In this document: positions 15,448-19,617 of the stretch, piece by piece
Position numbering within the stretch: position 1 is the stretch's first letter
How the letters are laid out: every line of letters begins with the position of its first letter
Made by a program: the position numbers and the translations under genes
Source of the DNA: a virus
Length of the DNA stretch: 20,793 nucleotides
Virus record (IMG/VR): IMGVR_UViG_3300031760_004315
Strand: one strand, 5' to 3'
Notes under the pieces: model-generated
Databases searched by the model: none
Told to the model about the DNA's origin: nothing
What the model saw: only the letters and a program-made list of their open reading frames with translations

Positions 15448-17952
15448 TCAGTCTTTTGTTACCATTGTGTTGATAACATTCTCAAGACTAGTGCCTCTCA
15501 TAAGTTTATTAACAGTATCAGCAACAGATTCATTATTTGCGATTGCATAAGGAGCCATTGCTCTAGTTGCATCGGTTAATAACTGAGCATTTGCCTTTGT
15601 ATTAAGTGCAGCTACAAGATCAGGACTTACACTTGCCATAATTTTCTCTATTGTTTCAGCATAAGCTTTCTGTTTAGCTTCTTCAATAGCAGCAATCTCT
15701 TTCTGTTTTGCAATTTCAAGGTCATTCTTCTCTTTTATACGAGCAATTTCAGCTGTCTGGATCTCTGCAAGAAGTGTCTGCATATCCTTTTTAGCCTGTG
15801 TTTCAGCTTCTGCAGCGGCTCTCTGGATATTTTGAATTTCTTCCTGTTTAGCAAGCTTATCTTTCTTTACTTTTTGCTCAAGGTCTGCTGAATAAAGAGC
15901 ATTTGCATTTTTGAGTTCAGCTTCCTTACGGTCAACTTCAGCAAGTTTTGTAATAACTTCCATACGAGCTGCCGCATCAGAAAGTTCAAGAGTTTTCTGA
16001 ATCATTTCTGTTTGGTGCTCTTCAAGCATTTCAGATACATAATGTTCAATAGCTACATTAAGAACTTCAACATCATATATCTTCATTCCATTCTCTTCAA
16101 AAATTCTACCAGTATTTTCTTTTTCGTCATCAATATTAAGAATAATATTTCTAATAATATCAGTAGAATTTGCATAAAATTCCTGAATTGTATATTTCTT
16201 TACTTCTCTTTTAAGTAGAGAACTCATGTGGTCACAAAGATACTTAACATAATTTTCAACATTAAACCACTTATTTTTATACTCCTCAAGGAAGTCAACA
16301 CAATAAGATACTTTAATCTGAGCATCAACAAAGTCAGATGTCTGAACATTAATAATATCAGCAACCTTATTATTCTTTACACGAAGAAAACCTGTGCGAA
16401 GAAGGTGATCAGTTGTCTTTGGCTTTCCTGTTGAGAGCTCCATAGCCTCTATTGTTTCATCATAATCAAGAAGTCTAGTTGTAGGTCCAAGAACCACTTC
16501 TCTCTTACCTGTTTTTGATACAATATTAATTGCATATCCAGTCCAAACATCAATAGCAACTGCACCATCATACTTGGTATCAAGTGTAATTGTGCGAGGC
16601 TTAGTATAACTTACACCGCGGCTAATGTTAGCATTGGCTTCAAAAATAGCAAGTGTACTTTCCTGATTTGAAGTTGAATAAGCTGTGTTAATAGCTGCAT
16701 CAAACCCCTGTGGTGAAAGCAGACCTTTCTTGGCAGCTCTTTCAGTAGCTTCTTCAGTAAGTCCATTATTATAATTAATAACTTCTACATTACCAGGATA
16801 CATTAACTGGCATTCCTTAGTAGTCAACTTACGCTTGACAACAACTTCCTTACGAGGGTCTGGAAGATACATCTGAGGGCCCCTAACTGTCTTAATCTGA
16901 CCATTAAGTCTATCAAGAATATATCTACCCTCTCCTTCGGGAATAGCAATAGCATGGTGCATATATTTACCATCATACTGGATCATTGCATGCTCTGGTC
17001 TAGGATAATAAATCATCTGATCATTACCTGTAATAAATAGCTCTTCTCCAATAGGATGATGAACTTTCTTTCCATTCTTATCTGTATCATCGTATGCAGC
17101 AATTACCTTTACATAAATACCGCTAATAGGTGAAAGCTCTAACGCGCGGAAGATGAGTCCACCCTTAGGCGCCTGTACAAAAGTTTCAGTAGGCTTAGGA
17201 AATACCACAGCTGGTCCATGAATATATCTCTTTTCTCCATCCTCATCTTTAAGAATAGCATACTCAAGACGTTCAAGAGTAACAGCATCACGAACATAAT
17301 TACCTGCCCCCTCTCCATTTCTGGCATCGACAGGAATAACTTCAATACCTGTTGGAGGAATATAAAAAGATACTTCTGTTCCCTTAATCACAAGTAACTG
17401 ACCTACAAAATAGTCCTCTTCCTTTACCTTTACTTCATTACCTTCTGCATCAATCATTGTTGCATTTGCACTACCAAGGCGGGCAGCTTCTGCATCATAA
17501 ACTCTAGCAAGAAGATACTGGTTTGAACGAAGTCTATGTCCACGGATAACTCGCGTCATCTGTCCTGGGAACAAACTGAAAGAGCATGGTCCAGGAATAT
17601 TTATCTTATGTCCAATCTGAAGATTAGCACTATTTACAGCCTTAGCTGCTTCTGGATGCGTATTATCTTCTGCTGGATTCTTTAATACAACATACCAACC
17701 TTCTGGAGCAGATACAAAAATCTGACGAGCGCGTTCAAAATCCTGTGTCTCCTCAAATCTCTTTGTCTTAGGATTAAATACAACAAGACTTTCCTGAGCA
17801 CTAATCGTCATTGTAATTGGACCAGTGTAGGTTTTAATTGCACCGTTTGTCTTACTCTGTAAAAAACAGAACTCGTTAGTACTAAGTACTAGATCTCTCT
17901 GTCTATTCATTGCACTTGGTGAATCATAATTTACATCATAATCTCTACTCAT
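15448..17952 (-). CDS. major vault protein (MVP) homolog: N-terminal vault repeat domains + SPFH-like shoulder + long cap-helix coiled coil
   Basis: 834 aa, compared by eye with human MVP (893 aa) from memory.
- N-terminus: NEFCFLQSKTNGAIKTYTGPITMTIS ~ [32 protein letters not shown].
- Repeated G-E-x-[WRY]-[LIF]-x-x-G-x(3-4)-Y-x-P modules: EDYFVGQLLVIKGTEVSFYIPP, GEKRYIHGPAVVFPKP, GEELFITGNDQMIYYPRP, and GEGRYILDRLNGQIKTVRGPQMYLPDPRKEVVVKRKL ~ MVP R9 [35 protein letters not shown].
- Shoulder: VVLGPTTRLLDYDETIEAMELSTGKPKTTDHLLRTGFL...ADIINVQTSDFVDAQIKVSY ~ [38 protein letters not shown]...[20 protein letters not shown].
- C-terminus: an A/E/K-rich coiled coil, then GTSLENVINTM ~ GSTPINLFNTAFG.
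The gene has its own consensus promoter and a strong RBS (AGAGGA). Confidence 0.75.
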   Translation of the reverse strand: MSRDYDVNYDSPSAMNRQRDLVLSTNEFCFLQSKTNGAIKTYTGPITMTISAQESLVVFNPKTKRFEETQDFERARQIFVSAPEGWYVVLKNPAEDNTHPEAAKAVNSANLQIGHKINIPGPCSFSLFPGQMTRVIRGHRLRSNQYLLARVYDAEAARLGSANATMIDAEGNEVKVKEEDYFVGQLLVIKGTEVSFYIPPTGIEVIPVDARNGEGAGNYVRDAVTLERLEYAILKDEDGEKRYIHGPAVVFPKPTETFVQAPKGGLIFRALELSPISGIYVKVIAAYDDTDKNGKKVHHPIGEELFITGNDQMIYYPRPEHAMIQYDGKYMHHAIAIPEGEGRYILDRLNGQIKTVRGPQMYLPDPRKEVVVKRKLTTKECQLMYPGNVEVINYNNGLTEEATERAAKKGLLSPQGFDAAINTAYSTSNQESTLAIFEANANISRGVSYTKPRTITLDTKYDGAVAIDVWTGYAINIVSKTGKREVVLGPTTRLLDYDETIEAMELSTGKPKTTDHLLRTGFLRVKNNKVADIINVQTSDFVDAQIKVSYCVDFLEEYKNKWFNVENYVKYLCDHMSSLLKREVKKYTIQEFYANSTDIIRNIILNIDDEKENTGRIFEENGMKIYDVEVLNVAIEHYVSEMLEEHQTEMIQKTLELSDAAARMEVITKLAEVDRKEAELKNANALYSADLEQKVKKDKLAKQEEIQNIQRAAAEAETQAKKDMQTLLAEIQTAEIARIKEKNDLEIAKQKEIAAIEEAKQKAYAETIEKIMASVSPDLVAALNTKANAQLLTDATRAMAPYAIANNESVADTVNKLMRGTSLENVINTMVTKD

Positions 17953-17990
17953 TATTTTCCTCTTTCTTTATTATTTCATTTGATATATAT

Positions 17991-18019
17991 ATTATAATAT
18001 ATTTTTTTAAAAAAATCAA
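17991..18019 (-). promoter_or_regulatory. promoter, TTGATT-17-TATAAT, for the MVP-like gene
   Basis: Minus strand reads TTGATTtttttaaaaaaatatatTATAAT. The spacer and -10 are identical to the flotillin promoter at 19671-19699. Confidence 0.6.
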
Positions 18020-18078: not shown

Positions 18079-18087
18079 AATTATATA

Positions 18088-19617
18088 TTAATCTTTTACT
18101 TCTGTGTAATTAGCTGGATACACTTCTACAGTAGTAGAATCCTTACTTGAAGTAGCTTTTCCACCAATAAAGCCAGCAAGCATAGACTTAAGATCAAGCC
18201 CAATAGACTGGCTAAGACCTTCTGATACCTGAGTCATATTCTTGATGATGTCTCCAGTGAGATTTGTACCACCTTCACCATACATATAGATCTTGTCTAC
18301 ATTAGTATATGCCTTACCTGCGGCCTCCGCAATAGCAGGAAGCTGTTCAAAGAATACCTTAATAGTATCCAATTCCATCTGCTGTTTAGCTGCATCACCA
18401 TACTGTTTCATAGCTTCAGCTTTCTTCATAAGACCTTCAGCCTCTGCATCCAACTTAGCCTTGATAGCTGCGGCTTCCGCCTCACCTTTAGCTCTAGTTG
18501 CTTCAGCCTCTGCAATACCCTGCTGTTTCTGAGCTTCTGCAAGAGCAATTTTAGCAGCAGCCTCTCTTTCAGCCTCGATCTGCTGAGCTTCAGCCTGCTT
18601 TGCTCTTTCAAAAAGTTCAGCTTCTGACTTCTTCTGAGTAGAATAAAGCTGAGCATCCGCATTCTGCTGAGTAGCATACTTCTGCGCTTCCGCAGTTTTC
18701 TTTACTTCTGCTTCAAGTGAACGCTCCTTAATAGTAACTTCACGCTCCTTGAGTTCGATCTCTTTCTCCTGCTTAGCAAGGTTAGCATTAGCAGTTGTAA
18801 TTTCCAGAGTCTTTCTCTGTTCCTCTGCCTGAATTCCCTTAGCAGCTTCAGCTTCAGCAAGCTTAATATCTGCCTGTTTCTTTAATTCTGCTTTCTGGAT
18901 AGCAAGTTCATTCTGTTTCTTTGCGATTTCAGTATTTGCGGCGACTTCTGCTTCATTAGACTCGCGGTTTGCCTTAGCTGTAGCTACTGCGATTTCCTTT
19001 TCTGCCTCTGCTCTTGCGATAGCAGCCTTCTTAGAAATCTGAACAATATTGTCTACACCAAGGTTTTCGATAACACTATTGTCATCAATAAAGTTCTGGA
19101 CATTGAATGAAACAATATCAAGACCCATTCCTGCAAGATCTGGTTCCGCATTAGTCTTAACCATTTCAGCAAACTTCTGACGGTCTGAAACCATCTCTTC
19201 TAACTTCATCTGACCAACAATTTCACGCATATTGCCTTCAAGTACTTCTCTTGCAACCTGACCGATATACTCAGGCTTCACATTAAGGAAATTCTGTGCG
19301 GCAAGTGCTAACTTATCTTTCTGATCGGAAACTTTTACATTGACAGCAGCATCTACTCTAATATTGATATAATCAGCAGTTGGAACTGCACTTGATGTTT
19401 TTACATCAATAGGAATAAGTTTCAATGATACTTTATCAATTCGTTCTAAGAATGGAATCTTAACAGAAGCCTTTCCAATAATAGTTCTCTTTCTAAGACC
19501 AGAAATGATAAAAGCAGTATCTGGCGGAGCCTTTACATACCCCATTGCTAGAATCAGAATTACAAAAATAGCAATTACAATAGGAACTGCCATTTTCAAG
19601 ATAGAACCAATAATCAT
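18088..19617 (-). CDS. flotillin-like SPFH (band-7) protein (FloT/YqiK-like)
   Basis: 509 aa. N-terminal TM/hairpin (MAVPIVIAIFVILILAMGYV). SPFH core (PDTAFIISGLRKRTIIGKASVKIPFLERIDKVSLKLIPIDVK...INIRVDAAVNVKVS). A ~250-aa Ala/Glu/Lys-rich flotillin-type coiled coil. Gly-rich C-terminal tail. The length matches B. subtilis FloT as I recall it. Confidence 0.8.
   Translation of the reverse strand: MIIGSILKMAVPIVIAIFVILILAMGYVKAPPDTAFIISGLRKRTIIGKASVKIPFLERIDKVSLKLIPIDVKTSSAVPTADYINIRVDAAVNVKVSDQKDKLALAAQNFLNVKPEYIGQVAREVLEGNMREIVGQMKLEEMVSDRQKFAEMVKTNAEPDLAGMGLDIVSFNVQNFIDDNSVIENLGVDNIVQISKKAAIARAEAEKEIAVATAKANRESNEAEVAANTEIAKKQNELAIQKAELKKQADIKLAEAEAAKGIQAEEQRKTLEITTANANLAKQEKEIELKEREVTIKERSLEAEVKKTAEAQKYATQQNADAQLYSTQKKSEAELFERAKQAEAQQIEAEREAAAKIALAEAQKQQGIAEAEATRAKGEAEAAAIKAKLDAEAEGLMKKAEAMKQYGDAAKQQMELDTIKVFFEQLPAIAEAAGKAYTNVDKIYMYGEGGTNLTGDIIKNMTQVSEGLSQSIGLDLKSMLAGFIGGKATSSKDSTTVEVYPANYTEVKD

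Follow-up and report, generated by a model that had tools for sequence, protein, structure and literature searches.

An 834-amino-acid open reading frame (ORF) at 15448..17952, on the minus strand of a 20,793-nucleotide stretch of viral DNA (IMG/VR record IMGVR_UViG_3300031760_004315; this whole stretch is called the window below), encodes a true full-length major vault protein (MVP) homolog that has the repeats, the shoulder and the cap helix. The window represents the part of an uncultured large, gut-type phage that holds replication and accessory genes; related contigs are ~140-150 kb long. The reading favored here, at a probability of roughly 55%, is that the protein is a stand-alone, cage-forming SPFH scaffold serving RNA repair and nicotinamide adenine dinucleotide (NAD) salvage as part of phage counter-defense. 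The flotillin gene beside it is a separate mobile cassette that has been gained, lost or moved between related genomes (a 'moron'), and is not an obligate partner. The outcome is a concrete, testable hypothesis of a cage or scaffold for RNA repair or counter-defense.

The MVP homolog was analyzed with Pfam profiles, by phmmer against all PDB sequences, by AlphaFold2 (AF2) modeling of the monomer from an 87-sequence alignment (mean predicted local distance difference test score, pLDDT, 80.6), and by Foldseek. The Pfam profile MVP_shoulder (PF11978) was matched at E 9.8e-26 (90.5 bits, cutoff 25) by residues 527-635, over profile positions 2-116 of 118, and Vault_3 (PF17795), which covers the R9 region, was matched at 31.6 bits (cutoff 28.8) by residues 480-517, aligned to rat ~466-519. 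In the phmmer search only major vault proteins were matched (rat 4hl8/4v60, E 2.1e-13; human, E 1.6e-12); the alignment spans query residues 473-763 and rat MVP residues 466-786 and contains the shoulder motif (phage VVLGP...LSTGKPK...ADIINVQTSDF; rat VVFGP...LSAGRPK...). The AF2 model consists of an all-beta N-terminal repeat array (residues 20-372, pLDDT ~90), a helical insert modeled partly at low confidence (378-436), an R9-like beta repeat (466-524), an alpha/beta, SPFH-like shoulder (528-635), one uninterrupted, cap-helix-like helix of 137 residues (637-773) and short C-terminal helices. A preliminary description, made by eye from the sequence, had named the MVP resemblance, the R9-like stretch, a mirrored shoulder motif (VVxGP...LSxGxPK) and a long cap-helix-like segment, and all four were recovered here; its coordinates for MVP and flotillin were likewise confirmed, with the correction that both ORFs lie on the minus strand.

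When the model was compared with the PDB by Foldseek, the best 12 matches were full-length MVP chains (E 1e-32 to 3e-26, 840-930 aligned columns), next came crystal structures of murine MVP R1-R7 (3gnf, 3gf5; E 2.6e-14 to 2.6e-13, target-normalized template modeling score 0.51-0.53), and the MVP chains were followed by the SPFH cage formers flotillin, erlin, prohibitin, HflK/C and stomatin. The classical Vault repeat profile (PF01505) was not matched by the MVP homolog at E <= 0.1. The N-terminal repeats are too divergent for that profile and are recognizable by fold, so that the repeats named in the preliminary description were upheld as an R1-R7 fold and not as a PF01505 match. With vault-domain profile matches and an MVP-type repeat array, the protein differs from a generic SPFH and coiled-coil protein. 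No family match to MVP was obtained in PHROGs or NCBIfam, and no PADLOC defense model was matched by MVP, flotillin or their neighbors. A search of BFVD returned A0A3G5A4K1 (Harvfovirus sp., 802 amino acids, annotated 'prohibitin domain-containing protein'), the entire length of which can be aligned to the phage MVP model at E 8.5e-12 and which may be an MVP-like protein of a nucleocytoplasmic large DNA virus.

Transcription signals were located by consensus matching and by searching for a shared element. A 29-bp extended promoter element (TTGAYWTTTTTAAAAAAATATATTATAAT) occurs in four copies in the window at <= 3 mismatches, with none expected by chance, and precedes four genes on the minus strand: DNA ligase (2154-2182), RNA ligase (14253..14281, 2 mismatches), MVP (17991..18019, containing TTGATT-17-TATAAT, 10/12) and flotillin (19671..19699, containing a perfect TTGACA-17-TATAAT). 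We infer that these genes share a transcription programme. Terminator-like hairpins with a T-run were found on the same strand right after the MVP stop (15406..15442) and after the flotillin stop (18051..18078). As consensus matches, these agree with the earlier assignment of promoter and terminator signals to each gene. Across loci, the intergenic gaps around MVP measure ~80-130 nt, which suggests a self-contained unit, and the genes immediately flanking it differ widely. MVP behaves as a stand-alone gene, with variable neighbors and with a sigma-70-type promoter and a terminator-like hairpin of its own. The MVP cassette (window 15344-18019, L003 9931-12608) has 95% DNA identity between the window and its closest relative, L003, and the flanks only 74-87%, a pattern suggestive of recent recombinational exchange of the MVP gene among related phages, or else of unusually strong constraint on it. 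In six loci (L027, L031, L035, L039, L047, L054) the gene directly downstream of MVP encodes an HNH endonuclease (HNH_3), consistent with a recombination-prone hotspot rich in mobile elements.

The gene upstream of MVP (18088..19617, minus strand) encodes a FloT-like flotillin of 509 amino acids, full-length as previously described, with a hydrophobic N-terminal anchor (MIIGSILKMAVPIVIAIFVILILAMGYV), an SPFH/Band_7 domain, an A/E/K-rich coiled coil (residues 201-420: 25% A, 18% E, 14% K; 57% A+E+K) and a Flot domain. Both Pfam matches were over cutoff (Band_7, E 3.1e-25; Flot, E 9.8e-10), and human flotillin-1 was matched at E 2.4e-49. The best NCBIfam model was FloT (NF058507), at 237.8 bits and below its equivalog cutoff of 700, and the nearest relatives (65-98% identity) were found on phage-sized contigs (~130-150 kb). 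The protein is FloT-like but belongs to a distinct, phage-borne clade.

The distribution of flotillin was examined after ORFs had been clustered over 57 MVP loci, each taken with 10 kb of DNA to the left and right of the gene. Flotillin was found within 10 kb in 14 of 49 viral MVP-anchored loci, in 12 of the 14 upstream and on the same strand, with gaps of 136-4,193 nt for the upstream genes; the window has the tightest spacing (136 nt). Among loci with full flanks the count was 10 of 34, and among flotillin-anchored viral loci MVP was within 10 kb in 9 of 35. L003, whose MVP is 97% identical, has no flotillin within 10 kb, and alignment of its DNA with the window showed a clean 1.6-kb indel bounded by duplicated promoter (window 18020..19654, minus strand, between the two element copies). 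When the regions upstream of flotillin and MVP were aligned with L003, both promoters were copies of one ~40-bp element; in the window phage the MVP promoter is duplicated, and flotillin is inserted behind the additional copy. In L173 (MVP 83%, flotillin 91% identity) flotillin lies downstream of MVP, past three small genes; L174 (85%) and L175 (78%) have no flotillin within 8 kb and carry Thg1 directly upstream of MVP. No flotillin was found near the MVP genes of huge phages. The dedicated MVP-flotillin pair that had been proposed is therefore not conserved across phage genomes, and the adjacency is an example of a mobile 'moron' cassette rather than a new two-component system.

Small ORFs on either side had also been put forward as accessory components. 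The 86-amino-acid ORF (19762..20022, minus strand) and the ORF downstream of MVP (15127..15360, minus strand; 77 amino acids from a TTG start, 74 from the first ATG) were each found beside MVP in 10 of 57 loci, all of them close relatives. Because they are confined to the closest relatives and the flanks are variable, the small ORFs (86, 77/74 and 55 amino acids) were rejected as MVP partners.

The wider neighborhood of MVP is recurrently occupied by RNA-repair genes. In the window, an RNA ligase (PHA02142 OB-fold and RNA_ligase; 12949..14226), a Pnkp-like polynucleotide kinase (AAA_33; 11633..12151) and a Metallophos_2 phosphoesterase (11074..11631), all on the minus strand, were found near MVP in 31, 36 and 35 of the 57 loci, respectively; the RNA ligase, Pnkp-like kinase and phosphoesterases of the window sit 1.2-4.4 kb downstream of MVP. 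Further neighbors within 10 kb, again out of 57 loci, were a NinI-like phosphatase (30), Thg1 (18), an RlaP nucleotidyltransferase (14) and YqeY (13), and more rarely a second RNA-ligase-like protein (8) and a vWA-like DUF2828/DUF7788 protein (7). Thg1 and RlaP are present in relatives and absent from the window. The co-location of repair genes with MVP is recurrent and lineage-correlated, and the genes do not form one operon.

Genes of NAD salvage also recur near MVP (nicotinamidase-type isochorismatase, PRPP synthetase, SIR2, NADAR, NAPRTase, NAD synthase), in a minority of loci (~5-12 of 55) and not in the window. In L007 (2736-17095; also L044, L038 and L056) MVP is flanked by NADAR, SIR2, isochorismatase/nicotinamidase, PRPP synthetase, NAPRTase and NAD synthase, a set that resembles a phage NAD-reconstitution counter-defense cluster. 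Both themes, RNA repair and NAD, persist in phage-like contigs of metagenome-assembled genomes (MAGs) down to 48% MVP identity. In the unrelated huge phage L001 (LR756500.1, 2514-12481) a tight, co-directional array was found, composed of a PARP, two small ORFs, an R2K ATP-grasp protein, an AAA ATPase, an RNA ligase, an HD and AAA_33 kinase, two ORFs and MVP. The PARP is PARP1/2-like (E ~2e-9) and the sole one among 172 loci; the array is intriguing given PARP4 in eukaryotic vaults, and it is a single case.

Other genes were noted around MVP in relatives. In L003 (267-4889) and in L031, L035, L036, L054 and L056 (first ~9 kb), the 10 kb upstream of MVP contain arrays of 11-17 tRNA genes. Suppressor-type anticodons were present in some of these arrays (CTA in L031, L054 and L056; TCA in L035), a hint that certain of these phages may recode stop codons. 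The DUF2828 and DUF7788 protein (~500 amino acids) is encoded two genes upstream of the 86-amino-acid ORF, just past the window end (L176 1-9; L003 6868-8361; L174 2875-4389), and its C-terminal half is vWA-like, with a DxSGS MIDAS-like motif and weak VWA_2 matches in 7/7 members. Its identification as a TEP1/Ro60-like TROVE protein was unsupported: profile-versus-PDB and lenient Pfam searches gave weak vWA matches and no TROVE. A protein of ~377 amino acids with nSTAND3 and AAA ATPase domains is encoded a few genes downstream of MVP in L005 (14894-16021), L174 (11891-13024) and L175 (12655-13791).

In the proposed mechanism, MVP would be made inside the infected cell from the promoter class of the DNA ligase and RNA ligase genes, would oligomerize via its shoulder and long helix into a cytoplasmic dome or vault-like cage, and the cage would act as scaffold or container for RNA/tRNA-repair and NAD-salvage counter-defense functions. 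Oligomerization is proposed because all solved SPFH and coiled-coil proteins (in the Foldseek list MVP, flotillin, HflK/C, prohibitin, erlin and stomatin) form rings or domes. The scaffold role is proposed because the gene is consistently embedded among RNA-repair and NAD-salvage genes and because such a role had been put forward earlier for bacterial MVP/SPFH homologs. Burroughs and Aravind reportedly made this proposal in 2016, in a catalogue of modular RNA-repair systems. A closed vault shell, a compartment resembling the phage nucleus and membrane remodeling, as suggested in the preliminary description, would be further possibilities.

Several observations weigh against this interpretation. 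The RNA-repair synteny belongs mostly to one phage lineage, whose loci are non-independent, and support from outside that lineage consists of the one huge-phage locus, L001. Beside MVP in the window no non-coding RNA or tRNA-like gene was found (ARAGORN, none; Rfam at E <= 1, only a sub-threshold ctRNA), and Rfam searches of six related loci returned ordinary tRNAs only. Chromosomal bacterial MVP loci had no conserved repair neighbors and no cluster in more than 6 of 50 loci, a result that is uninformative, and no evidence of absence, since simple ORF calls in high-GC DNA cannot be relied on (spurious antisense ORFs). The NAD+ pocket of human MVP is partly conserved in the phage protein, as described below. 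The MVP model is that of a monomer and is silent on the oligomer. The larger claim is that large phages assemble vault-like MVP cages within infected bacteria and use them in a counter-defense module of RNA repair and NAD salvage, where the cages would shelter or organize tRNAs, ribosomes, repair enzymes or NAD+ against abortive-infection nucleases and NADases; it is put forward as rather unlikely. If true, it would give prokaryotic viruses an equivalent of the eukaryotic vault, which contains PARP4 and the NADase-bearing TEP1, and would offer a genetically simple system in which to study the purpose of vaults.

All sizeable genes of the window are co-directional, and the window is AT-rich (27-41% GC). 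In order of transcription they are a NinI-like phosphatase, the 86-amino-acid ORF, flotillin, MVP, the 77-amino-acid ORF, the 55-amino-acid ORF, a 198-amino-acid phrog_8839 protein and the RNA ligase, followed by the Pnkp-like kinase, the Metallophos_2 phosphoesterase, PhoH/PIN, an endolysin (glucosaminidase, amidase and SH3 domains), gyrase B and A, and an NAD-dependent DNA ligase. The endolysin, PhoH, gyrase A/B, NAD-dependent ligase and RNA ligase, with PHROG matches, constitute phage-typical content on one strand. The NinI-like Ser/Thr phosphatase (Metallophos, including GDxxDRG; 20023..20793, minus strand) has a frame that is open to the window edge. Its apparent ORF of 217 amino acids (20676-20023) is a window-boundary artefact, the full gene having 269 amino acids in the independent assembly L176; an N-terminally truncated phosphatase was rejected, since the ORF simply passes the window end. 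The order of flotillin then MVP was seen again in an independent assembly with the same gene order as the window, and is thus not an assembly artefact. A sub-threshold Rfam match to ctRNA_pND324 (9029-9111, minus strand; 30.8 bits against a threshold of 45, E 0.47), between the PhoH gene and a 160-amino-acid gene, is most likely due to chance.

A search of cultured and deposited phages for DNA near-identical to the whole window gave no match, and tblastn with GyrA gave matches of only ~40% identity, to assorted fragments. MVPs at 53-72% identity were found on 49 IMG/VR viral contigs, many of them 130-150 kb long, and one 97% identical on a 146-kb scaffold; the huge-phage genomes LR756500, LR756501 and LR756503 (462-735 kb) encode homologs at 44-45% identity. 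Among species-representative genomes, all MVP matches at >= ~48% identity were on gut or rumen MAG contigs, often of 139-176 kb and of inconsistent taxa, including Methanobrevibacter (an archaeon), Saccharibacteria and Mollicutes (e.g., L106, CACYVR010000001.1, 138,782 bp, and other loci in L093-L127). Those that carry MVP together with phage-type repair genes are probably mis-binned phage genomes. Bona fide chromosomal MVPs, from Nannocystis, Polyangiales, Cytophagales, Riflebacteria and Sericytochromatia, were 43-46% identical. The host is probably a Firmicute, judging from the domains of the endolysin, a low GC content, promoters of sigma-A-like type and the taxa to which the MAGs are assigned.

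Human MVP binds NAD+, ADP and ADP-ribose between its SPFH shoulders (PMC12280208; 10.64898/2026.05.01.722283), and the phage cage could on this basis be mainly a reservoir or buffer of NAD+ or nucleotides, held at the inter-subunit shoulder pocket and working with phage NAD-salvage enzymes against NAD-depleting defenses. The pocket residues listed for the human protein (R504, K506, R507, H509, R511, D521 and others; PMC12280208) were mapped by phmmer alignment. Phage K510, P511, K512 and H516 align to human R504, P505, K506 and H509. The G-K/R-P-K keyhole-loop motif is kept, and hardly any variation is seen across the family at G509, P511 and K512. Human R507, R511 and D521, however, are replaced by T, L and N. 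The NAD genes that flank MVP in L007 and recur elsewhere, and the PARP upstream of MVP in L001, would suit a reservoir, but the former are restricted to a minority of loci and missing from the window, and the latter association is a single case. A main function as an NAD+ store is regarded as unlikely. Membrane docking through flotillin, a role in the virion and a bacterial origin of the contig were also considered, and all are less likely readings. Were MVP and flotillin functional partners, flotillin would supply a membrane SPFH platform on which the MVP cage docks or co-assembles, and infected cells would contain a compartment associated with the membrane. The genes lie next to each other in one orientation, each behind a copy of the same promoter, and both products are members of the SPFH superfamily of cage formers. 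Some of the vaults in eukaryotes, a subpopulation, are membrane-associated in situ (PMC13100048). Flotillin is near MVP in 14 of 49 loci, and the 10 of 34 seen among loci with full flanks exceed what random placement would give in a ~145-kb genome. This enrichment is compatible with accessory genes clustering together, as they do anyway in this plastic region. Against a partnership stand the lack of nearby flotillin in L003, L174 and L175, its displaced position in L173, the 26 of 35 flotillin-anchored viral loci without MVP nearby, and the absence of flotillin near huge-phage or chromosomal bacterial MVPs; such a partnership is judged unlikely, and any interaction may be facultative.

A structural or virion-associated function for MVP, which would then be an internal, scaffold or decoration protein and not an accessory factor acting inside the cell, draws on the self-assembly of eukaryotic MVP into shells and was raised for phage MVPs by Santos et al. 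(2023; 10.1101/2023.11.10.566534), who deemed it unlikely given normal capsid genes and an MVP outside the structural cluster. The window gene likewise lies among replication, repair and lysis genes outside the structural module, shares its promoter class with the ligase genes and matches no PHROG structural family, and a virion role appears very improbable. That the contig is bacterial, from a chromosome or plasmid, with MVP and flotillin as ordinary cellular genes, can be argued from the many close homologs deposited within bacterial MAGs and from the flotillins and MVP homologs that bacterial chromosomes do carry. The MAG contigs concerned are, however, phage-sized and taxonomically inconsistent, one being assigned to an archaeon, 49 related contigs are classed as viral by IMG/VR, the window genes are phage-typical, relatives carry tRNA arrays, and true chromosomal MVPs are only 43-46% identical; a cellular origin is scarcely credible.

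The MVP family was found to be large, with at least 6,382 clusters at 90% identity (E <= 1e-5) and, among 50%-identity representatives, 1,251 clusters, of which 613 were matched at E <= 1e-30 and most were full length. The statement in the preliminary description that MVP is rare outside eukaryotes does not stand beside these counts, nor does the statement that none had been described as a phage gene: two phage MVPs from human-gut Caudoviricetes were described in silico in a preprint (Santos et al., 2023; bioRxiv 10.1101/2023.11.10.566534), together with a copy from Clostridium sp. SUG910 at 99% identity. Bacterial homologs were discussed earlier still (Daly, 2013; Sokolskyi, 2019), and bacterial MVP/SPFH homologs were tied to RNA repair by Burroughs and Aravind (2016), as quoted in PMC13404743. 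Any claim to a first phage MVP is superseded, and the window MVP adds to a family already described in silico; no report was found in the literature of experiments that demonstrate a vault particle from a prokaryote or a phage. What is new here is how abundant the family is in large phages of gut and rumen, that it reaches into huge phages, the stand-alone cassette and the RNA-repair and NAD-salvage surroundings. The vault is among the largest and most conserved eukaryotic particles, its function has been a question for ~40 years, and phage and bacterial MVPs offer a simpler setting.

As in T4 Pnkp/Rnl1 and modular RNA-repair systems, an RNA ligase occurs in the window neighborhood together with a Pnkp-like kinase and phosphoesterases, to which relatives add Thg1 and RlaP, and an SPFH-type protein suits the scaffold slot proposed for such systems (PMC13404743). 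It differs from T4 Pnkp/Rnl1-type systems in that the genes around the phage MVP are not one operon, no cognate non-coding RNA was detected there, and MVP is linked to the enzymes by gene location. The window flotillin shares its membrane anchor, SPFH domain, A/E/K-rich coiled coil and Flot domain with B. subtilis FloT/YuaG and the human flotillin-1/2 cage (PDB 9BQ2, 9L3G), but is of a phage-borne clade and far under the FloT equivalog cutoff. Bacterial chromosomal MVPs (Myxococcota, e.g. Nannocystis, Cytophagales, Riflebacteria, cyanobacteria) are full-length and collinear with the phage protein at 43-46% identity, with a Band-7-like shoulder, and differ in their chromosomal context, high-GC genomes and organisms; neither flotillin nor phage-type repair genes were detected within 10 kb of them. 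The Caudoviricetes ctOa11 and ct2Ri15 MVPs (Santos et al., 2023) are of the same family, from uncultured gut phages with probable Firmicutes hosts, and are encoded away from the structural module. The contig from Clostridium sp. SUG910 was recovered as L097, and its ct2Ri15-type MVP is ~56% identical to that of the window; the 2023 set has two members, for which no flotillin, RNA-repair or NAD context was reported.

The cap helix of rat MVP, at ~155 residues, is longer than that of the phage protein (137). Structural alignments with rat and human MVP gave only ~16-18% identity, and the phage protein has the extra helical insert (378-436). The window has no TEP1, PARP4 or vault RNA (protein scans gave no PARP or TROVE protein, and no Rfam or tRNA gene was above threshold). 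Eukaryotic MVP assembles into 39-mer half-vaults and closed 78-mer shells, of which the phage MVP may form a counterpart. The beta-repeat array, R9-like repeat, SPFH-like shoulder and long cap helix are collinear with those of eukaryotic MVP (PDB 4V60, 4HL8, 9BW5, 9Z4W), the GxPK keyhole-loop motif is kept, and the RNA-repair and NAD setting of phage MVP echoes human vaults, which bind NAD+ and ADP-ribose and house an NADase and a PARP.

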